From an uncultured Actinomycetota bacterium (GTDB taxonomy: Bacteria; Actinomycetota; Actinomycetes; JAHEKZ01), in the NCBI GenBank assembly GCA_963718235.1, contig CAVQYR010000002.1, positions 576,001 to 640,000 of the forward strand: 64,000 nucleotides of DNA, in the 5' to 3' direction. The notes beneath the pieces were generated by a model. It did not search any database. It saw nothing but the letters and a program-made list of their open reading frames with translations, and was not told the origin of the DNA. Both the position numbers and the translations under genes were made by a program. Of this stretch, positions 8,629 through 41,023 are shown one piece after another; within the stretch, counting starts at the first letter, position 1; the number at the start of each line of letters is the position of its first letter.

Positions 8629-9677
8629 CGGCTGATCCTCGGGTCGATCACGGCGATCACGATGTCGGCCACCATGTTGAAGAACAGGACCGAGAGCGAG
8701 AAGACCAGGAACAGCGCCTGCATGACGGCGAAGTCCTTGTCCTCGATCGCCTCGAAGGTCAGCAGGCCGAGGCCAGGGTAGGAGAAGACGGTCTCGACCG
8801 TGATCGCCCCTCCGATGATGAACCCGATGTTGAGGAAGATGAGTGTGATCGTCGGCAGCGACGCGTTCGGAACGGCGTGCCGTCGTCGGACCAGCCGGTC
8901 CATCAGGCCCTTTGCCCTGGCCGTGTTCAGGTAGTCCTGGCCGAGCTCGTCGACCATCGACGCACGCATGATGAGGGAGTACTCCGCGAGGTACACGATC
9001 GCCAGCGCCGTCGCAGGCAGCACGGTGTGGTACGCGATGTTCACGACACCCTCGAGGGACATCGCGTCGATCCCGGAGTCCTTGAACCCCCCGCTGGGGA
9101 AGATGCCGGGGAAGGGGCCGATCCCGGTGGAGAACAGCAGGATCAGGAGCAGCCCGAGCCAGAACTCAGGCGTCGCGTAGAAGAACAACGTGACCCCCGT
9201 GGAGGTCTTGTCGAAGCGGCTGCCCCGGTTCCAGCCGGCCCGGATCCCGATCCACACCCCGACCGCCGTCGCGACCAGGGTCGACGCACCGATCAGGATC
9301 AGGGTCGGCCACATCCGCCCCCCGATCAGCTCCCACACCGGTCGGCCGAACCCGGTCGAGATGGCGTCCAGGCCGAACGGGTCCTTCAGGTAGCCCCAGA
9401 ACTGCTGCGGCAGAGGGGCGGTCAGCTCGGCCCGGATCTGGGCGAGCTCCTCCGAGGAGATCCCCCGCACCCCGCGGTACTGGGCGGCCGGGTCGCCGGG
9501 CAGCATCCGGAAGAGGAAGAAGTTGAACACGAAGACGAAGACCATCGTCCCCGCTGCCGCTGCGAGTCTGCGCGCGGTGAACCGAGCCAGGCCGCCACTG
9601 GCCGTGCTGCGCCGAGACGTCTTCGCGCCGGTCGGAGCCGCCCCGGCCCCGGTGACCGCGCTCCCGTCGACCACCAA
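8625..9677 (-). CDS. Peptide ABC transporter permease (OppB/DppB-like)
   Basis: LPGDPA, PEFWLG, DYLNTARAKGL, HAVPN, VETVFSYPGLG. Confidence 0.93.
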   Translation of the reverse strand: MVVDGSAVTGAGAAPTGAKTSRRSTASGGLARFTARRLAAAAGTMVFVFVFNFFLFRMLPGDPAAQYRGVRGISSEELAQIRAELTAPLPQQFWGYLKDPFGLDAISTGFGRPVWELIGGRMWPTLILIGASTLVATAVGVWIGIRAGWNRGSRFDKTSTGVTLFFYATPEFWLGLLLILLFSTGIGPFPGIFPSGGFKDSGIDAMSLEGVVNIAYHTVLPATALAIVYLAEYSLIMRASMVDELGQDYLNTARAKGLMDRLVRRRHAVPNASLPTITLIFLNIGFIIGGAITVETVFSYPGLGLLTFEAIEDKDFAVMQALFLVFSLSVLFFNMVADIVIAVIDPRISR

Positions 9678-9680
9678 CCG

Positions 9681-11531
9681 CTACTCCACGTCTGCGTCGT
9701 TGGACCGGCGCGACCGGGTACCCAGCCACACGACCACGCCGACCAGCAGGGCTGCCGCGGCTGCCCCACCCACGATCAGGCCGATGTTCGTGGCGTTTCC
9801 GGAGCTGGCGCCCTCTTCGGTGACCGGGGTGATGTTGCGGTAGGAGAAGGTGCCGTACTGGAACAGGATCGCCCCGTCGGGGTCCGGCTGCGGGACGAAG
9901 CCGGTGAACCGGTCGGTGCGGTAGGCCTGCAGGTAGTCGTAGTACTGGGTCACGATGTAGGCGTTCGCGTCGTAGACCATCTGCTGCATCTTCTTGACGA
10001 TCTCGGTGCGAGCCTCGGGGTCGATCTCGGTTGCCTGCTGCTCGTACAGCTCGTCGTACTGCTTGTTGCAGTAGAAGCTGTCGTTGAGCCCGGCGTAGAC
10101 GACGCCGTCGGTCCACTCGTAGTTGCGCTGCCCGCAGGTGAAGGTCGACAGCTGGTAGTCGGGGTCGGGCTCGACCACCCAGCCCCACTCGTACATGTCG
10201 AAGGTTCCCTCACCGGCGATCTCGTACAGCCGGCTCTCCGACACGGTGTCGACGTCGGAGTCGATCCCGATGTCCTTCAGCCACCCCTGCAGGAACTGGA
10301 TGGTGGTCTTGGAGGTCTCGGAGTTCGACCGCGCGTACAGCTGGTAGACGAGCGGGTCGGAGCCGTCGGGCATCGTGCGGATCCCGTCGGGGCCCTTGGT
10401 GTAGCCGGCGTCGTCGAGGATCTGGTTGGCCCTCGCCGGGTCGTAGGTGACCGGCTCGGACGGCTCGTAGTGATCCGGGTACAGCGGGGGGATGACGGAG
10501 GTTCCCGGTGCCCCTCGCCCGTCGAGGGTTCGTTGGACCAGGGCGTCCTTGTCGACGGCGTAGTGGATCGCCAGCCGCACCTGCGGGTCCTTCAGCGAGG
10601 GGTGGCCGTCGCCGATCGGGGTGCCGTCGGTCAGGGCAGCCCCACCGTTCATGGTCAGGTAGTTGAAGCCGTAGTACACCGACTCGCGGGCCTCGATGTT
10701 GTCGGCGCCCTCCAGGGAGGCGAACACGTTGGGCTCGAGGTCGTCGGCGAAGTCGATCTCGCCGTTCTTGAGTGCCTGCACCATCGCGTCGGCGTTGCGG
10801 TAGAGGCGGAACTCCACGCCGTCGATGTTTGCCGGACCGCCCCAGTAGCCGTCGTTGCGGGTGAAGGTCCAGTACTGCCCCTCGCTCGCCTCGGACAGCA
10901 CGAACGGTCCGCTGCCCACCCCGCCTTGCGGGTCGGAGCCCGGCTCGTTGGTGTACTTGCGGATCTCGTCGTCGTCGATCTGCTTCCAGATGTGCTCGGG
11001 CACGATCGGGACGGCCAGTCGCTCCATGATCGGCGTGGGCTTCTTCAGCGTCATGACCACCGTGGAGTCGTCGGTGGCCTCGACGGTCTTGATCTGGGCG
11101 ACGTAGCTGCCGTAGTTGGTCTTCTCGATCTTTCCGTCGAGCACCCGGTTGAAGCTGTAGGCGACGTCGTCAGCAGTCAGCGGCTCCCCATCGCTGAAGG
11201 TCACTCCCTGTCGGATCTGGTAGGTCCAGGTCAGACCGTCGGCCGAGTTCTCCCACGACTCGGCCAGCCGTGGCTCGGGTGCGAAGTCGGTGGCGCTGTA
11301 GCCAGTGAGGGTGTCGTACATCAACCCCCACATCTCGTAGGCGGCCGCCGTGATGCCCTTGTAGGGGTTCAGCGAGTCGACGTCCTGGAGCACCCCGACC
11401 CTGAACACCGTGTCCCCCGAGCTGGGCGTCGCGCTGGGGGACGGCGTGTCCTCGGCGGCGGCGATGCCGACCGGCAGCCCCAGGGCCACCATCAGGGCCA
11501 GCGTGCCGGCGGTAAGTCGTGACTTCACCAT
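9681..11531 (-). CDS. Family 5 (peptide) ABC substrate-binding protein with C-terminal membrane anchor
   Basis: Signal peptide MVKSRL...IAAA|EDT; PRLAESW...DGLTWTY, FSDGEPLTADDVAYSF, GSGPF; C-terminal hydrophobic helix followed by RSRR. Confidence 0.92.
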   Translation of the reverse strand: MVKSRLTAGTLALMVALGLPVGIAAAEDTPSPSATPSSGDTVFRVGVLQDVDSLNPYKGITAAAYEMWGLMYDTLTGYSATDFAPEPRLAESWENSADGLTWTYQIRQGVTFSDGEPLTADDVAYSFNRVLDGKIEKTNYGSYVAQIKTVEATDDSTVVMTLKKPTPIMERLAVPIVPEHIWKQIDDDEIRKYTNEPGSDPQGGVGSGPFVLSEASEGQYWTFTRNDGYWGGPANIDGVEFRLYRNADAMVQALKNGEIDFADDLEPNVFASLEGADNIEARESVYYGFNYLTMNGGAALTDGTPIGDGHPSLKDPQVRLAIHYAVDKDALVQRTLDGRGAPGTSVIPPLYPDHYEPSEPVTYDPARANQILDDAGYTKGPDGIRTMPDGSDPLVYQLYARSNSETSKTTIQFLQGWLKDIGIDSDVDTVSESRLYEIAGEGTFDMYEWGWVVEPDPDYQLSTFTCGQRNYEWTDGVVYAGLNDSFYCNKQYDELYEQQATEIDPEARTEIVKKMQQMVYDANAYIVTQYYDYLQAYRTDRFTGFVPQPDPDGAILFQYGTFSYRNITPVTEEGASSGNATNIGLIVGGAAAAALLVGVVVWLGTRSRRSNDADVE

Positions 11532-32933: not shown

Positions 32934-34217
<1,284 letters not shown>

Positions 34218-34607
34218 TCAGCTGCCGAGCTCGGCATCCAGGGCTGCTCGCTCGGCATCGTTCAGCGGGCGTGAGCGCTTGGTCTGCAGGTCTCGGGCGA
34301 CCAGCACGCACTCGCCTTGTGCGGCAATGGTCCCGTCGCGTTTGAGCACGGTCTCCTTGGTGCGCACGCTCGACGTTCCGTAGCCGACCAGCTCGCTGCG
34401 CACGGTGATCTCGCCGTCGTCCTGAGTGACCTCGTCGCGGAAGTCGATCGCGACCCGAGCGATGACGATGTCGTAGGCGGAGTCGCCGAACAGCTGCACG
34501 CTCAGCTGGTCGCGTGCCTCTTCCAGGTAGTTCAGGTAGACCGCGTTGTTGACGTGCCCATAGGCGTCCATGTCGGCCCAGCGCACCCGGATGCGTACCT
34601 CGACCAT
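34218..34607 (-). CDS. Acyl-CoA thioesterase (4HBT/FcbC hotdog fold)
   Basis: VRWADMDAYGHVNNAVYLNYLEEAR; TACCGT 6 nt before the ATG. Confidence 0.92.
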   Translation of the reverse strand: MVEVRIRVRWADMDAYGHVNNAVYLNYLEEARDQLSVQLFGDSAYDIVIARVAIDFRDEVTQDDGEITVRSELVGYGTSSVRTKETVLKRDGTIAAQGECVLVARDLQTKRSRPLNDAERAALDAELGS

Positions 34608-34827
34608 GGCGACACGGTATCGCTGGCGGTGGGGTGGGCCGTGCGGCCCGGCTCGGGCAGCGACGCGACCGGGGCGAGTGGAACCTCCCGGGCGGCTCCG
34701 GTTCCGCTGAGCCAGTGAGTAGGAGAGCTGTCGGACCTGAACCTCCCCCCCCCTGCGCCAACGCGCCGCACCAGCCGCAAGCGACTCGTCCGACTCGGCC
34801 GCAGCGTGAGTGGGTAGCGTCGTCGGC

Positions 34828-36039
34828 ATGCGGCTGCTGCACACGTCCGACTGGCATCTCGGGCGTACCCTGCACAACGAGTCGTTGCTCGACGCCCAGC
34901 GGGGTGCTCTCGGCCAGATCGTCGACCTCGTCGACACCCACGACGTCGACGCGGTGCTCGTCTCCGGCGACGTCTTCGACCGAGCGGTCCCCCCGGTCGA
35001 GGCGGTGACGATGCTGGCCGAGACCCTGCACCAGCTCACCGCGCGCGTGCCCGTGGTGGTGATCTCGGGCAACCACGACTCCGCGGTGCGGCTGGGCTTC
35101 GGTGCTGACCTGTTCGCCCACCCCCTGCACGTGCGTACCCGCGCCGACCAGGTCGGCCGACCGGTCGAGCTCGCCAACGAGCACGGCCCAGTGCTGATCT
35201 ACCCGATCCCCTTCCTCGACCCCGATGCCGCCCGGTACGTCCTGGCTGACGGCGACGAACCACTGGAGCGCAGTCACGACGCGGTGCTCCGGGCGGCCAT
35301 GCGCCGGGTCACGACCGACCTGCAGCAGCGAACGAACGAGTCGGGCGACTCGGTCCGCAGCGTGGTGATGGCTCACGCCTTCGTGGTCGCGGGCCCGTCC
35401 CTCGACGACGAGCAGACCCGCAGTGACAGTGAGCGCGACATCCGGGTCGGTGGCACCGACAGCGTCTCCTCGAGCCTGTTCGCCGGCGTCGACTACGTCG
35501 CTCTGGGGCATCTGCACGCGCCACAGCAGCCGCGGTCGCCTGAGCAGGGCGGACGCAAGAGCATCCTCCGCTACTCGGGATCGCCGTTGCGGTACTCCTT
35601 CTCCGAGGCGACGCACACCAAGTCGGTCACTCTGGTCGATCTCGACTCGTCCGGTGTGACGGCCATCACCGCCGTCCCTCTGGCCCAGCCGCGTGAGATG
35701 GCCGTTCTGGTCGGCGCCTTCGACGACCTGCTCGACCCGGATCGCCATGTCGGTCTGACACAGGCGTGGGCCCAGCTGACCGTCACCGACCCGGCCCGTC
35801 CCGAGCAGATGGTGCCCCGGCTGCGCGAGCGGTTCCCGCATGCCCTCGTCGTGCGGCACCAGCCCGCGTCAGGCCCGCTGCTCACCAGTGGGGGCGGGTC
35901 CGGAGTCGAGGCTCTCGACCCCTTGGAGGTCGTCGAGTCCTTCGTCCAGTACGTGACCGGCGCTGACGCGAGCCCCGACGAACTCAGGGTCTTCGCCTCG
36001 GCCTACGAGTCCGTGAACGCGGCCGAGCGGAGCGCTTGA
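34828..36039 (+). CDS. sbcD: SbcCD nuclease subunit D (Mre11-like)
   Basis: HTSDWHLG, SGDVFD, GNHDS, AHAF, LGHLH, RYSGSPLRYSFSE. Confidence 0.96.
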   Translation: MRLLHTSDWHLGRTLHNESLLDAQRGALGQIVDLVDTHDVDAVLVSGDVFDRAVPPVEAVTMLAETLHQLTARVPVVVISGNHDSAVRLGFGADLFAHPLHVRTRADQVGRPVELANEHGPVLIYPIPFLDPDAARYVLADGDEPLERSHDAVLRAAMRRVTTDLQQRTNESGDSVRSVVMAHAFVVAGPSLDDEQTRSDSERDIRVGGTDSVSSSLFAGVDYVALGHLHAPQQPRSPEQGGRKSILRYSGSPLRYSFSEATHTKSVTLVDLDSSGVTAITAVPLAQPREMAVLVGAFDDLLDPDRHVGLTQAWAQLTVTDPARPEQMVPRLRERFPHALVVRHQPASGPLLTSGGGSGVEALDPLEVVESFVQYVTGADASPDELRVFASAYESVNAAERSA

Positions 36040-39035
36040 TGCGGCTCCATCGGCTCACGCTGCGTGCGGTCGGGCCGTTCGCCGGGCAGTACTCCGTCGA
36101 CTTCGACCGACTGGGATCGTCCGGGCTCTTCCTGCTGGAGGGGCCGACCGGGGCCGGCAAGTCGAGCATCATCGACGCCGTCGTCTTCGCGCTGTACGGC
36201 AAGGTCGCCGGGCACGACGCCAGCGACGACCGGATGCACTCCGACTTCGCCGAGCCGAACGTCGAGCCCTTCGTCGAGCTCGACTTCAGCACCTCGTCGG
36301 GGCTCTACCGGGTGCGCCGGACCCCGAAGTACGAGCGACCGAAGGTGCGTGGCACCGGGACCGCCACCCAGAACGCCACGGCCAGGCTGTGGCGGTTGGC
36401 CAGCCCCGACTCCGAGACCGGCGAGCCGCTGACGACCCGGATCGAGGAGACCGCCACCGCCGTCCTCGACGCGGTCGGGCTGAGCCGTGACCAGTTCGTG
36501 CAGACGGTGGTGCTGCCACAGGGTGAGTTCGCGTCGTTCCTGCGTGCGCCGGCCGAGAGCCGGCGCGCCATGCTGCAGCGGCTGTTCGGCACCGAGGTCT
36601 ACGACAAGGTCGTCCGCCGTCTGGAGGAGATGCGCCGGTCGGCCCACGAGGCGCGGCGGGAGTCCGACGTCCGGGTACGGGAGGCGGTGGCCGCATTCGG
36701 CGGAGCGGCGGGGCTGGAGCCCGACGACGCGTCCGCACTGATGGCGAGGGTCGACGACCTGGACGATGCCGACACACAGGTGGCCGCGGGGCGGGCGGTT
36801 ATCGAGCGGCTCGAGGGTGAGTCCACGCTGCTGGCTGAGCTCCGATCCGAGGCGCTTCGCACCGCGCAGCAGCGGGCGACCGAGCTCCACCAGGCGCGTG
36901 ACCGGGAGGAGCGGCGCCAGCGCAAGGAGACGCTCGTGTCCAGGGCCGACGAGCTCGCGACCACACGCGACGCGCAGCAGACGCTGCGCCGGCGCCTCGA
37001 CCTGGCCGAGCGGGCTGAACGGGTCAGGGCGGTGCTCGACGGTCTGCGCAGCTGCGAGCGACGACTCGCCGTGGTGGAGCAGCGCATCGAACGGGCCACC
37101 CGGGTGCTCCCCGAGCACCTCCGTGATGCCGCACCCGCCCGATGGTCGCTCGAGGCGCGCCAGCTGCGAGACGACGCCGCACAGCTCGCCGACCGGGTCG
37201 ACGACGAGGAGTCGCTGCCGCTGCGGCGCCAGGAGACGATCCTGGCCCGGTCGGCCGCAGACGAGCTGCACGAGCTGCTCGCGCAGGCCACGGCGACAGC
37301 AGCTGCACTGCCCGAGCAGGTCGAGCAGCTGCGGCTCCAGCGCGACGAGGTCGTGCGGCGCATCGCCGGCGCCGACTCGGCGACTGCTGGCCTCCGGGTC
37401 GCTGCCGCGCAGCACGCCGCCGCACAACGCGTCGACGACCTGACCGTGTCCCTGACCACTGCAGCGACTCGGGCCGAGCGCGCCGCCGAGAGCGCACGAG
37501 CGGCGCAGGAGCACGAGAACGACCTGCGCCAACGACACATCGCCGGCATGGCTGGGGCACTGGCCGCTGGTCTGGCCAGGGACCAGCCGTGCCCGGTGTG
37601 CGGGTCCTTGGAGCACCCGCGCCCGGCCCGTCGTCAACCGGGCGACGTCGACGCGGCCGAGGTCGACGCCGCGGAGCAGGTGCGGCGAGCATCGCTCGAG
37701 GCGCTCGAGGCGGCGTCCTCGACCGTGGCGCAGCTGCGGGCCGAGCTCGCCTCGGCGAGGGCCGAGTCCGGCGGCCTTGCCGCCGCCGCCGCCGCCGCGG
37801 CGGTCGTGGCAGCCGAACGGAGAGTGGGCGACGTGTCAGCCGCGCAGATCGACCGCGACCGGATCGAGACCGCGCTCGCTGCCCTCGAGGTACGCCGTGC
37901 TGAGCTCGCCGAGGCGTCGGTCTTGCTGACGTCGCAGTCGACGGCCGCGGCCACGAGGGCCTCCGCCCTGGAGGAAGCCCTCGATGTGCTCGAGGGCCTG
38001 CTGCTCGCGGCCCGTGGCCCGCACGAGTCGGTGGCTGCCCGCGTGACCTCGATGCTTCGGGCCGCCGAGCGGCTGGAGGCGGCCGAGGCTGCGGCCCATG
38101 AGCTGCAGGCCGTTCGCGACGAACGAGCCGGGTGGGCCGACAAGCTCGCCCAGGCGTGCCGTGAGCAGGGCTTCGCCGACAGCACAGCCGTCGACGAGGC
38201 GTTGGTCTGCGACGACGAACGCCACGTGTGGGCGTCGGAGGTGGCCCGGTACGACAACGACGTGGCAGCCGTGTCAGCCGCGTTGGCCGACCCGTCGCTG
38301 GGCTCGGTCGACGTCGATGCCGTCATCGACCTGTCACCCCTGGTCGAAGCCGACCTCGCCGCCAGCGATCGTGCCCGGCGAGCCGAGGGCCGGGCAGCGT
38401 CCCTCGAGCAGCGGCTGAGGACGACCCGCGCCGCGTTCGACTCCTGGCGGTCGACCCTGGCCGACCGTTCGAGGCAGCTCACCGACACAGCCACCGTCAT
38501 CCGCACCGCCAACCTGATGGCCGCGGCGACCAGTGACAACGCGCGGGCGATGACGCTGCCGACCTACGTGCTGCTCGAGCGGTTCAGGGCGGTCGTGGCC
38601 GCCGCCAACGAGCGGCTGTCCCAGATGAGCGACGGTCGGTACGCACTCGAGCACAAGGAGGAGCGCGACGCGGGGCGCCGCTCGGGCCTTGGGCTCGTCG
38701 TCCGGGACACCCTCACCGAGCAGTCCCGCGCCCCCGGGACTCTGTCGGGCGGAGAGACCTTCTACTGCTCGTTGGCCCTGGCCCTCGGCCTGGCCGACGT
38801 CGTGACGGCGGAGGCTGGCGGGATCGACCTCGGGACTCTCTTCGTCGACGAGGGGTTCGGCATGCTCGACCCCGACACACTGGAGCAGGTCCTCGGCGTG
38901 CTCGGTGGCCTGCGGTCCGGCGGCCGAGTGGTCGGGATCGTCAGCCACGTTCCCGAGCTGAACGAGCGGATCAGCGAACGGGTCGTGGTCCGCCGCAAGG
39001 CCGACGGCTCGAGCCGGCTGGAGGTCGTCGCGTGA
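36039..39035 (+). CDS. sbcC: SbcCD ATPase subunit C (Rad50/SMC-like)
   Basis: GPTGAGKS, LPQGEF Q-loop, long coiled coil, CPVCGS zinc hook, LSGGE, FVDEGFG, SH; TGATG coupling to sbcD. Confidence 0.96.
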   Translation: MRLHRLTLRAVGPFAGQYSVDFDRLGSSGLFLLEGPTGAGKSSIIDAVVFALYGKVAGHDASDDRMHSDFAEPNVEPFVELDFSTSSGLYRVRRTPKYERPKVRGTGTATQNATARLWRLASPDSETGEPLTTRIEETATAVLDAVGLSRDQFVQTVVLPQGEFASFLRAPAESRRAMLQRLFGTEVYDKVVRRLEEMRRSAHEARRESDVRVREAVAAFGGAAGLEPDDASALMARVDDLDDADTQVAAGRAVIERLEGESTLLAELRSEALRTAQQRATELHQARDREERRQRKETLVSRADELATTRDAQQTLRRRLDLAERAERVRAVLDGLRSCERRLAVVEQRIERATRVLPEHLRDAAPARWSLEARQLRDDAAQLADRVDDEESLPLRRQETILARSAADELHELLAQATATAAALPEQVEQLRLQRDEVVRRIAGADSATAGLRVAAAQHAAAQRVDDLTVSLTTAATRAERAAESARAAQEHENDLRQRHIAGMAGALAAGLARDQPCPVCGSLEHPRPARRQPGDVDAAEVDAAEQVRRASLEALEAASSTVAQLRAELASARAESGGLAAAAAAAAVVAAERRVGDVSAAQIDRDRIETALAALEVRRAELAEASVLLTSQSTAAATRASALEEALDVLEGLLLAARGPHESVAARVTSMLRAAERLEAAEAAAHELQAVRDERAGWADKLAQACREQGFADSTAVDEALVCDDERHVWASEVARYDNDVAAVSAALADPSLGSVDVDAVIDLSPLVEADLAASDRARRAEGRAASLEQRLRTTRAAFDSWRSTLADRSRQLTDTATVIRTANLMAAATSDNARAMTLPTYVLLERFRAVVAAANERLSQMSDGRYALEHKEERDAGRRSGLGLVVRDTLTEQSRAPGTLSGGETFYCSLALALGLADVVTAEAGGIDLGTLFVDEGFGMLDPDTLEQVLGVLGGLRSGGRVVGIVSHVPELNERISERVVVRRKADGSSRLEVVA

Positions 39036-39799
39036 GCCGACCGCTCGCCCCACCGCCCACGCTGCGCGCCACCCTCGATGGCCCCGAACGACAGCTGATC
39101 CAGGCGGTCGTCGGTCCGGCCGACGACGACCTGCTCCGTCCGCTGCGTGATGCCCGCGGGCGGGAGTTCCAGCGGCTGGAGTTCCTGGGCGACTCGGTGC
39201 TCGACCTGGTCCTCGCGGTGCACGCGTGCGCCGAGCCCACGTGCCCGTCGTGTCGACGGGTCGACGGGCACGTCACCCGGCTGGTCACCGACGTGCAGCT
39301 CGGTCGCCGGGCGCGGTCCCGGGGGCTCGGCGACTGGCTGGAGTGGCAGGCCTCCGACGAGCGCCTGGCCGACCTGGTCGAGGCATGCGTCGCGGTGGCG
39401 TTCGTGGCCGGTTCGTGGGCGCGGGCCTGTGCCTGCACCGCTTCCCTCGTCCATCCGCTGGGTCCGGCGACGACCCGGACGCTGGAGCAGGGATGGGTCG
39501 GGCCCGACACCCCCACACCGGTCCGCGCAACGGGCTCGGCGCTGCTCGAGCTCGCTGCCGGACAGACCGTCTTCGTGCAGCACCCTGACGCCGACGAAGG
39601 GGAGCTCTCCCGCCGCCGAGCCGAGCTGCACCAGGCGAGCCGGGTCGCCCATCGTGCCCGGCGGCGCCATCTCGTCGATGAGCACGGTGCCGATGCGGGG
39701 GTGAGCGACCGGGTCGAGGTGCTGCTGGCTGACCGCCTACTGAGCGCCGGCGCCGACGCGGCCCTGCAGGACGCGGTATCCGTCCTCGTCGACGAATGA
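39032..39799 (+). CDS. Protein with two tandem RNase III-like domains and no dsRBD
   Basis: Domain 1: QRLEFLGDSVL...LADLVEA. Domain 2: RATGSALLEL...HPDADEGELSRRRA...VSDRVEV. GTGA overlap with the sbcC stop. Confidence 0.8.
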   Translation: MSRPLAPPPTLRATLDGPERQLIQAVVGPADDDLLRPLRDARGREFQRLEFLGDSVLDLVLAVHACAEPTCPSCRRVDGHVTRLVTDVQLGRRARSRGLGDWLEWQASDERLADLVEACVAVAFVAGSWARACACTASLVHPLGPATTRTLEQGWVGPDTPTPVRATGSALLELAAGQTVFVQHPDADEGELSRRRAELHQASRVAHRARRRHLVDEHGADAGVSDRVEVLLADRLLSAGADAALQDAVSVLVDE

Positions 39800-40042
39800 C
39801 AGGGGAGCGACCAGTGACACCGTGCGGCTCGCCGCGTGCCGTTCTGCCGGGCTTCGCGACGACGTGAGCACCGCAGTCAGGGCTGCAGCGACGACCACGC
39901 CGCTCACGAGAGGCACGATGCCGGGGGCGCCGAGAAGGATGAGCAGCAGTCCGGCCGTCACGCCCGACGTGGCACCGACGAGCACACGCGTCGTCACCGG
40001 ACCCGGGGAAGCGGCCGCGGGGAAGTGCGGCTGTCGAGACAT
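39737..40042 (-). CDS. Small two-TM hypothetical membrane protein
   Basis: Two hydrophobic segments; CACGCT 7 nt before ATG 40042; overlaps the convergent gene by 63 nt. Confidence 0.45.
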   Translation of the reverse strand: MSRQPHFPAAASPGPVTTRVLVGATSGVTAGLLLILLGAPGIVPLVSGVVVAAALTAVLTSSRSPAERHAASRTVSLVAPLSFVDEDGYRVLQGRVGAGAQ

Positions 40043-40126
40043 GGAGGACAGCGTGGCCAAGAACGGGCCCTTTCCGACGTTGCGACACGCAGGTGCCCGT
40101 CCCGCGGGACGTGGCAGGCTGGGGTG

Positions 40127-41023
40127 GTGACCGACCTGATGCGGGACTTGGCAGTCGATGACGGGCGCCGCCTCGACGTCCTCGTCGGGGGTGCTGCCAC
40201 CGGGCCGGTGGTCGTGCTGCACCACGGCACCCCGTCGGACGCGACGTGCTGGGCGGACTGGCACGAGGACGCCGTTCGCCGCGGCGTCCGGATCGTCTCG
40301 GTGAGCCGGCCTGGGTACGCCACCTCCACCCGGCTGCCGGGACGCCACGTGGCCCAGGCCGCCGACGACGTCGCCGCTGTGCTCGACGCGCTCGGCGTCG
40401 ACGAGTACGTGACGGCCGGCTGGTCCGGGGGAGGCCCGCACGCGCTCGCGTGCGCAGCGCTGCACGGCGGTCGCTGCCTGGGGGCCGCGACGCTGGCCGG
40501 TGTAGCGCCGTACGGCGTCCCGGGGCTGGACTTCCTCGACGGAATGGGTCCGGAGAACGTCGCCGAGTTCGGGGCGAGCCTGCGGGGTGAGCCGGACCTG
40601 CGGGCCTGGCTCGCCGAGCACGGGGAGCCCTTCCGGCACGTCACCGGTGCCGAGCTGGCCGACGCCTTCGGGGGGCTCGTGCCCGCCATCGACAAGCAGG
40701 TCCTGCAAGGGGGCTACGCCGACCACATGGCGGCCGAGACGCGCCGGGCACTGAGCGGCGGGTTCGACGGCTGGGTCGACGACGACCTCGCCTTCGTCCG
40801 CCCCTGGGGTTTCGACCTGGACCAGGTCACCGTCCCGGTCACGGTCTGGCAGGGCGATCTCGACCTCATGGTCCCCCCGGCGCACGGAGCCTGGCTGGTC
40901 GACCACGTCCCGGGTGCGCAGGCGCGTAGGCCGAGCGGGCACGGACACATCTCGCTGGTCACCGAGCACCGGGGTGAGATCCTGGACTGGCTGCTGGCCC
41001 AGCCGGCGGCGAAGGCGCGCTGA
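40127..41023 (+). CDS. Alpha/beta fold hydrolase
   Basis: HHGTP, SRPGYATS, GWSGGGPH, WQGDLDLMVP, GHIS. Confidence 0.9.
   Translation: MTDLMRDLAVDDGRRLDVLVGGAATGPVVVLHHGTPSDATCWADWHEDAVRRGVRIVSVSRPGYATSTRLPGRHVAQAADDVAAVLDALGVDEYVTAGWSGGGPHALACAALHGGRCLGAATLAGVAPYGVPGLDFLDGMGPENVAEFGASLRGEPDLRAWLAEHGEPFRHVTGAELADAFGGLVPAIDKQVLQGGYADHMAAETRRALSGGFDGWVDDDLAFVRPWGFDLDQVTVPVTVWQGDLDLMVPPAHGAWLVDHVPGAQARRPSGHGHISLVTEHRGEILDWLLAQPAAKAR

Follow-up and report, generated by a model that had tools for sequence, protein, structure and literature searches.

The 64,000-nucleotide (nt) stretch of high-GC actinobacterial DNA analysed here (the window) encodes on its + strand a 255-residue protein (P0001; open reading frame (ORF) 39032-39799, stop codon included) made of two homologous RNase III domains, with no double-stranded RNA-binding domain (dsRBD). 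It very probably has the architecture of a two-domain pseudo-dimer with one intact catalytic site: domain 1 retains the four acidic residues typical of the active centre, and in domain 2 the signature that carries the first two of them is degenerate. On balance we think it probable, by analogy with RNase III dimers in which one site is dead, that the protein acts as a monomer with a single RNase III site and places a nick in one strand of a duplex each time it binds. A preliminary description of this DNA had recognised a tandem RNase III reading frame, and both the frame and its motifs lie exactly, to the base, where that description placed them. A probable zinc site, the substitution of Arg for Glu in domain 2, the canonical RNase III gene (rnc) elsewhere in the genome and the coupling of the tandem gene to sbcDC were not part of it.

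Residue counts given throughout refer to 142 full-length relatives, taken from 250 pooled sequences and kept if a single profile match spanned both domains. The features of the tandem gene are as follows.

39020..39024, + strand: GGAGG, Shine-Dalgarno-like by its sequence and presumed function, 7 nt 5' of the GTG start
39032..39799, + strand: tandem RNase III coding sequence, an ORF with 107 relatives at E <= 1e-3
39065..39466, + strand: RNase III domain 1, about residues 12-145, catalytic site intact (PF00636, 31.6 bits; single-domain RNase III structures aligned to model residues 12-144 with Z about 12.5)
39170..39193, + strand: signature QRLEFLGD, residues 47-54, which holds E50 (141/142 relatives) and D54 (142/142)
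39221..39253, + strand: H64-x6-C71-x2-C74 insert, with H141 (39452-39454) a probable zinc site
39368..39382, + strand: ADLVE, residues 113-117, which holds D114 (142/142) and E117 (141/142)
39467..39514, + strand: linker, about residues 146-161, with one small helix at 145-153 (DSSP on the AlphaFold2 model)
39515..39796, + strand: RNase III domain 2, about residues 162-255, with a degenerate site and without the N-terminal helices of a full domain (PF00636, 21.9 bits; hhalign; fold)
39521..39538, + strand: degenerate signature VRATGS, residues 164-169, with R165 opposite E50 and S169 opposite D54 (hhalign equivalence)
Residues 184-197, domain 2: HPDADEGELSRRRA (sequence read)
39587..39610, + strand: DADEGELS, residues 186-193, the most strongly conserved block in domain 2 (D188 in 126, E189 in 128, G190 in 125 and S193 in 128 of 142)
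39704..39718, + strand: SDRVE, residues 225-229, in which D226 and E229 are the partly conserved counterparts of D114 and E117

Two RNase III domains in one chain

The Pfam family PF00636 matched the whole protein in two stretches with 49.9 bits (cut-off 27), and PF14622 matched with 41.4 bits (cut-off 35). Recognition of each half by PF00636 held for the N-terminal half, which alone scored 31.6 bits over residues 47-125, but not for the C-terminal half, whose 21.9 bits (E 3e-4, residues 168-214) fall below the cut-off. This weak match is not a chance one, because the two halves match each other as profiles and because the C-terminal half, folded alone, finds RNase III folds. When profiles of the two halves, built from the 142 relatives, were compared with hhalign, they matched over 92 columns with a probability of 96.7% (E 4.6e-10), and E50, D54, D114 and E117 of domain 1 were paired with R165, S169, D226 and E229 of domain 2. 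In sequence searches of the PDB, Arabidopsis DCL3 matched residues 166-208 with the first of its RNase III domains, and RNase III of M. tuberculosis matched residues 162-212.

TIGR02191, the equivalog that represents canonical RNase III, gave only 41.5 bits against a cut-off of 166.25, with its best stretch in the second half of the protein. It was alone among NCBIfam models at E values up to 10, where no other curated family, Mini-III included, was matched. The earlier claim that a dsRBD is absent also stands: at E up to 10 no dsrm or other dsRBD family of Pfam matched the protein, which stops at residue 255. Besides PF00636 and PF14622, which scored above their cut-offs, Pfam returned sub-threshold matches to Ntox34 and DUF7426. 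The Ntox34 match (PF15606; residues 220-254, 39689-39793; 20.2 bits, cut-off 25) was rejected as fortuitous, the segment being an Ala/Asp/Leu-rich helix that forms part of the RNase III fold. No fused relatives of 448-2000 residues were found at E <= 1e-8, which is weak evidence.

AlphaFold2, supplied with an alignment of 44 sequences, predicted an all-helical structure for the full chain (pLDDT 96.5, pTM 0.93). In a Foldseek search of the PDB, chains of Drosha or Dicer filled the first 34 rows among the matches listed (query TM-scores 0.52-0.67), and single-domain RNase III chains from bacteria reached 0.30-0.38. VIA-align superposed the model over residues 1-255 on Drosha 5b16_A (Z 18.9, rmsd 3.6 A, 243/255 residues), and gave Z 18.6 for DCL3 and Z 15.0 for Giardia Dicer 2ffl_C. 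The single-domain enzymes 3n3w_A, 2a11 and 7r97_A gave Z 12.5-12.8 and covered only model residues 15-144. Because Drosha and Dicer align over the full length and the single-domain chains over domain 1 only, the two domains appear to be placed as in an intramolecular RNase IIIa/IIIb dimer, and the protein can be predicted with confidence to fold as a single-chain pseudo-dimer like the RNase IIIa/IIIb core of Drosha and Dicer. The pseudo-dimer geometry foreseen in the preliminary description is thus reproduced in the model, with the superposition on Drosha as its best expression. A prediction of two copies as a homodimer scored 0.00 against a mark of 0.42, a result which has no bearing on dimerisation either way.

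The second domain was also folded separately. Residues 147-255, with an alignment of 26 sequences, gave a pLDDT of 90.0 and a pTM of 0.80, and comparison of this model with 48,161 representative chains, made without Foldseek, placed RNase III folds first, the top 27 rows having Z 8.1-11.9. Titles of 23 of these 27 name RNase III, Dicer, Drosha, DCL, Dcr1, Mini-III, RTL4 or R3B2, the remaining rows being two chains of mitoribosomes, one protein from structural genomics and one chain of a trypanosome editing complex. Folds that are plainly unrelated begin at row 32, with Z of 5.0 or less. The C-terminal half is therefore predicted to adopt an RNase III fold, as had been proposed from the sequence.

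One intact and one degenerate site across the family

A word-indexed search returned 107 relatives of 206-291 residues at E <= 1e-3. Almost all come from metagenomes or from metagenome-assembled genomes (MAGs) of actinomycetes, and their database names go no further than 'dsRNA-specific ribonuclease' or 'ribonuclease III domain-containing protein'. When 1.84 billion representatives were searched with the profile, 34 clusters reached E <= 1e-30 and 255 reached E <= 1e-10; the nearest cluster in a protein atlas is an actinobacterial 'Ribonuclease III domain-containing protein' (score 0.93, 96 members).

The preliminary description reported that domain 1 keeps four acids while the domain 2 signature reads VRATGS, and both the sequence and the family counts agree with it. 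E50, D54, D114 and E117 occur together in 141/142 relatives, so that the domain 1 acids are conserved in homologues as that reading presupposed. The equivalent positions of domain 2 are occupied as follows.

Position 165, opposite E50: R in 86, A in 29 and E in 15 of 142
Position 169, opposite D54: A in 70, S in 60 and D in 3 of 142
Position 226, opposite D114: D in 88, S in 38 and N in 11 of 142
Position 229, opposite E117: E in 97, Q in 21 and D in 15 of 142

Acids at both 165 and 169 were found in none of the 142 relatives. As judged from the alignment, domain 2 is still under constraint; at least 85% of relatives keep each of G168, E173, D188, E189, G190, L192, S193, R196 and G240, and mean pairwise identity is lower in domain 2 (0.365) than in domain 1 (0.477). 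The Glu of the DEG motif may presumably serve the active centre of the partner domain, which would assign E189 to the live site, an assumption that carries no weight in what follows.

A distant tandem subfamily (loci L058-L061) shows the same arrangement, with domain 1 intact and domain 2 reading RRLA-x-x-G-D/N/T and D-x-x-Q. The asymmetry appears to be old and maintained, because it is seen both family-wide and in this subfamily. Three of these distant proteins (311-330 residues) are encoded at L058 9502-10491 (- strand), L059 9406-10398 (+) and L060 9517-10452 (+), each between an NlpC/P60 gene and a short-chain dehydrogenase (SDR) gene. All three have a domain 2 without counterparts of E50 and E117, and in the L058 protein, which reaches 89.4 bits as a whole, the highest-scoring Pfam stretch is domain 2.

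Domain 1 itself carries an insertion. The H-x6-C-x2-C sequence occupies the place of the P-D-x-D-E-G-E-L-S motif, which is kept in domain 2 (PDADEGELS) as in canonical enzymes. H64, C71, C74 and H141 co-occur in 110/142 relatives and most other members lack every one of them, a pattern in which the HCCH set is probably an added, structural zinc site.

Some incomplete or atypical sequences were also met. In two MAGs the match to the tandem protein ends early (L018 8001-8519, query residues 19-190; L020 8001-8378, query residues 15-147), leaving a C-terminal half of only 47 and 27 residues, respectively, before the stop; a frameshift, a pseudogene or an assembly error is possible. Three longer proteins, P0140 (503 residues), P0156 (1016 residues) and P0172 (517 residues), have one N-terminal RNase III domain resembling domain 1, followed by 400-900 residues without a Pfam match.

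Candidate mechanism and relation to known RNase III systems

What is said here of characterised RNase III enzymes follows the available portions of two published sources, PMC3867540 and PMC5141509. Four carboxylates, E40, D44, D107 and E110 in A. aeolicus RNase III, hold two Mg2+ per site, and one site makes one strand cut (PMC3867540). Heterodimers of E. coli RNase III in which one site is dead, cited in the same source, are reported to nick double-stranded RNA (dsRNA). In the tandem protein the two domains would associate intramolecularly, in the manner of RNase IIIa and IIIb of Dicer and Drosha, forming one duplex-binding valley in which only the domain 1 end would hold two Mg2+, via E50, D54, D114 and E117. 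On an A-form duplex the enzyme would break a single phosphodiester of one strand each time it binds, the nick arising from the presence of the four carboxylates at that end of the valley alone. The domain 2 end would merely hold the other strand, and its Arg may stand in for metals at the backbone phosphate of the strand that is left uncut. Because there is no dsRBD, targets would probably be chosen by the catalytic core or by a partner, as with Mini-III, which works without a dsRBD (PMC3867540). The homology of the two domains, the predicted pseudo-dimer, the asymmetry throughout the family and the paralogue status next to a canonical rnc are results of the analysis. We infer catalysis, zinc binding, the role of the Arg and the substrate of the protein; for one-strand cutting and a dsRNA substrate the models are the half-dead E. 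coli heterodimers and the pairing proposed for the trypanosome KREN and KREPB proteins.

Several observations weigh against nicking as the outcome. Gene neighbourhoods vary by clade and indicate no RNA substrate, and D226 and E229 are kept in 88/142 and 97/142 relatives, so that residual metal binding at domain 2 is possible in some members. In addition, dsRNA is near-symmetric, and an enzyme with a single site could sever both strands by binding twice in succession. Net double-strand cleavage might come about in this way, by rebinding in the opposite orientation, or by the action of two pseudo-dimers on one substrate, and the dead domain would then be a built-in dimer partner only, conferring no strand selectivity. 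We consider this unlikely, though it is the alternative to be taken most seriously. The twofold pseudo-symmetry of dsRNA (PMC3867540) speaks for it, as does the lack, in the sequence as read, of any feature that would fix binding orientation, but it leaves an asymmetry that is kept family-wide and in the distant subfamily hard to explain beside a canonical homodimer in the same genome. A protein that does not cut at all, acting in RNA binding or as a chaperone like chloroplast RNC1, seems highly improbable. RNC1 has tandem RNase III domains that serve binding only (PMC3867540), and the tandem protein resembles it in lacking a dsRBD and in having one dead site; the four domain 1 acids, however, are kept in 141/142 relatives, which is the pattern of a working active site.

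The genes nearby raise the question of whether the natural duplex is linked to DNA. Acting with SbcCD or SSB, the enzyme might, for example, cleave RNA that is paired with DNA in hybrids or R-loops, the dead domain holding the DNA strand. The start codon of the tandem gene overlaps the sbcC stop, sbcC lies directly upstream in 13/15 own-family genomes examined, and in a second clade the gene directly precedes a paralogue of the SSB family in 14/14 loci. Each of these contexts is limited to one group of related genomes, however, and may reflect nothing but inherited gene order. Two genomes (G003 and G004) keep the gene although a search with the SbcC of the window detected no SbcC there, and G345 has its sbcC on another contig. 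Other members adjoin NlpC/P60 and SDR genes, prfB, CarD or a type III polyketide synthase (PKS) gene, and known RNase III enzymes sense 2'-OH groups on both strands (PMC3867540). We regard a DNA-linked role as improbable. A broader and equally doubtful version is that the asymmetry of the enzyme matches an asymmetric substrate: the strand cut would be the RNA of an R-loop or RNA:DNA hybrid, or else one defined member of a sense/antisense pair, and the dead, Arg-lined domain would clamp the spared strand, in this lineage together with SbcCD at DNA ends or hairpins. If so, bacterial DNA repair would for the first time include an enzyme of the RNase III family, and the protein would be a natural nickase that selects one strand of a duplex.

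Membership of the RNase III superfamily (PF00636) is supported by the profile score above cut-off, by the signature and D-x-x-E of domain 1 and by the predicted all-helical fold. The four-class scheme, in which class 1 (classical) and class 4 (Mini-III) enzymes are one-domain homodimers and two domains per chain characterise Drosha and Dicer (PMC5141509), nevertheless has no place for the protein, which lacks defining features of each of classes 1, 2/3 and 4. Domain 1 shares the fold, the signature and the four acids of canonical class 1 RNase III (rnc), but the whole protein is far from the TIGR02191 cut-off, has two domains and lacks a dsRBD. Mini-III is likewise bacterial and consists of the catalytic core with no dsRBD (PMC5141509), and Mini-III 4oun_A matches domain 2 with Z 10.2; it is, however, a single-domain homodimer with two active sites. 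Dicer and Drosha have two RNase III domains in one chain that form an intramolecular pseudo-dimer, on which the model superposes with Z 14-18.9, whereas both of their sites are active (PMC3867540) and domain 2 here is dead. The tandem protein also lacks their PAZ, helicase, Pro-rich and dsRBD modules, and is a bacterial protein of 255 residues with a linker of about 16 residues and 14-20% identity to those structures.

In the logic of its sites the protein is closer to the trypanosome editing nucleases. For the KREN proteins, a pairing with dead KREPB proteins has been proposed by which only the mRNA strand is cut and the other is spared (PMC3867540). KREN1-3 with KREPB4/5 would join an active and a dead RNase III domain, and the tandem protein fits this scheme at the level of residues and of predicted fold; the trypanosome editing-complex chain 9dei_D matches domain 2 with Z 8.8. 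The trypanosome proteins differ in being separate polypeptides with zinc-finger and PUF modules in a large mitochondrial complex, where the present protein is a single short chain. Chloroplast RNC1 has its tandem domains in one chain with catalytic residues lost (PMC3867540), but both of its domains are silent and domain 1 here is intact in nearly all relatives. Engineered E. coli RNase III heterodimers also have one working site per dimer and are reported to nick dsRNA (cited in PMC3867540), but are two-chain laboratory constructs with dsRBDs and not a natural single chain. The tandem protein thus combines an architecture like the Dicer/Drosha core with site logic like that of KREN/KREPB.

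No description of a bacterial tandem RNase III protein or of an sbcCD-linked RNase III was found in the literature searched, most subscription journals and supplements lying outside it. The sequences are already public under generic names, and it is the recognition of a conserved bacterial tandem class with one live and one dead site that appears to be new. The family presents the Dicer/Drosha core arrangement at its minimum, in 255 residues of a bacterial protein with one site dead family-wide. If nicking is true, it would provide a natural single-strand-cutting dsRNA enzyme useful as a reagent, a simple model for strand choice by active/inactive RNase III pairs such as those of trypanosome editing, and a case of independent evolution of the tandem architecture outside eukaryotes.

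Distribution and gene neighbourhoods

The source assembly (G000; 3.17 Mb, two contigs, 95% complete) encodes a canonical rnc elsewhere (PF00636 92.5 bits; G000:C2:777278-777550, locus L042), and because of this the tandem gene is regarded as an extra paralogue. Profile searches found the tandem gene in 18/20 genomes of its own order, which comprise one family. Of the two misses, G010 has its sbcC broken by a contig end, so that the tandem gene may be unassembled, and G001 has neither the tandem gene nor SbcC by these queries. In a sample of the class, 401 genomes evenly drawn, 23 have the gene; outside the own family it occurs in 5/381, one of these being a partial match. Occurrence in few, mostly uncultured actinomycete lineages with near-constant retention suggests a specific RNA target.

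In the window the tandem gene is flanked in the order citrate synthase, sbcD, sbcC, tandem gene, alpha/beta hydrolase and acyltransferase, the two genes directly upstream being as follows.

34810..36039, + strand: sbcD, Mre11-type phosphoesterase (PF00149, 52.3 bits; PF12320 SbcD_C, 29 bits)
36036..39035, + strand: sbcC, Rad50-type ATPase of 999 residues (PF13476; PF13558 SbcC_Walker_B)

The sbcD/sbcC and sbcC/tandem junctions are both 4-nt overlaps: the sbcD stop overlaps the sbcC start, and the GTG start of the tandem gene shares GTGA with the TGA stop of sbcC. From this arrangement of the reading frames the tandem gene is judged to be translationally coupled to sbcDC. The GTG start is well placed, because the N-termini of homologues agree with the protein sequence that follows it. 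Among the ORFs of the region, family matches occur only in the frame of the tandem gene, and the long antisense and out-of-frame ORFs that lie over it are the usual artefacts of high-GC DNA. A scan of 34000-41000 returned no promoter-like and no terminator-like sites, such a scan being uninformative in a high-GC actinomycete, and the whole window has no Rfam match at gathering thresholds. Among 22 public sequencing runs no RNA run was listed as carrying this DNA; the best DNA run contained 0.36 of the sampled words.

The linkage to sbcDC is lineage-specific. In the own family the exceptions to the upstream sbcC are G003 and G004, members of one genus in which the tandem gene lies beside an acyltransferase gene. 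The second clade comprises 14 loci (L007-L020) with proteins 69-90% identical to each other, and has the order MaoC-like gene, tandem gene, SSB-family paralogue and ABC-F ATPase (about 8750-11200 of each locus), the last two present in 14/14; G345 belongs to this clade. Elsewhere the gene is found with NlpC/P60 and SDR genes, directly after prfB, with CarD and a type III PKS, or with an Exo_endo_phos gene on the opposite strand. No partner gene conserved across clades was found among the contexts compared. Because both contexts are restricted to related genomes, and genomes in which SbcC was not found still keep the gene, the link to DNA metabolism through SbcCD or SSB is treated as a lead only.

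Two details of the flanking genes may be added. At L022 6775-8627, which belongs to a Mycobacteriales MAG, the end of prfB (7893) is also the exact start of the tandem gene, another overlap-coupled context. In the window the next ORF, 39836-41023, encodes the alpha/beta hydrolase; because its Pfam match starts only at residue 124, the true start is probably later, which would put up to about 300 nt between the two genes.

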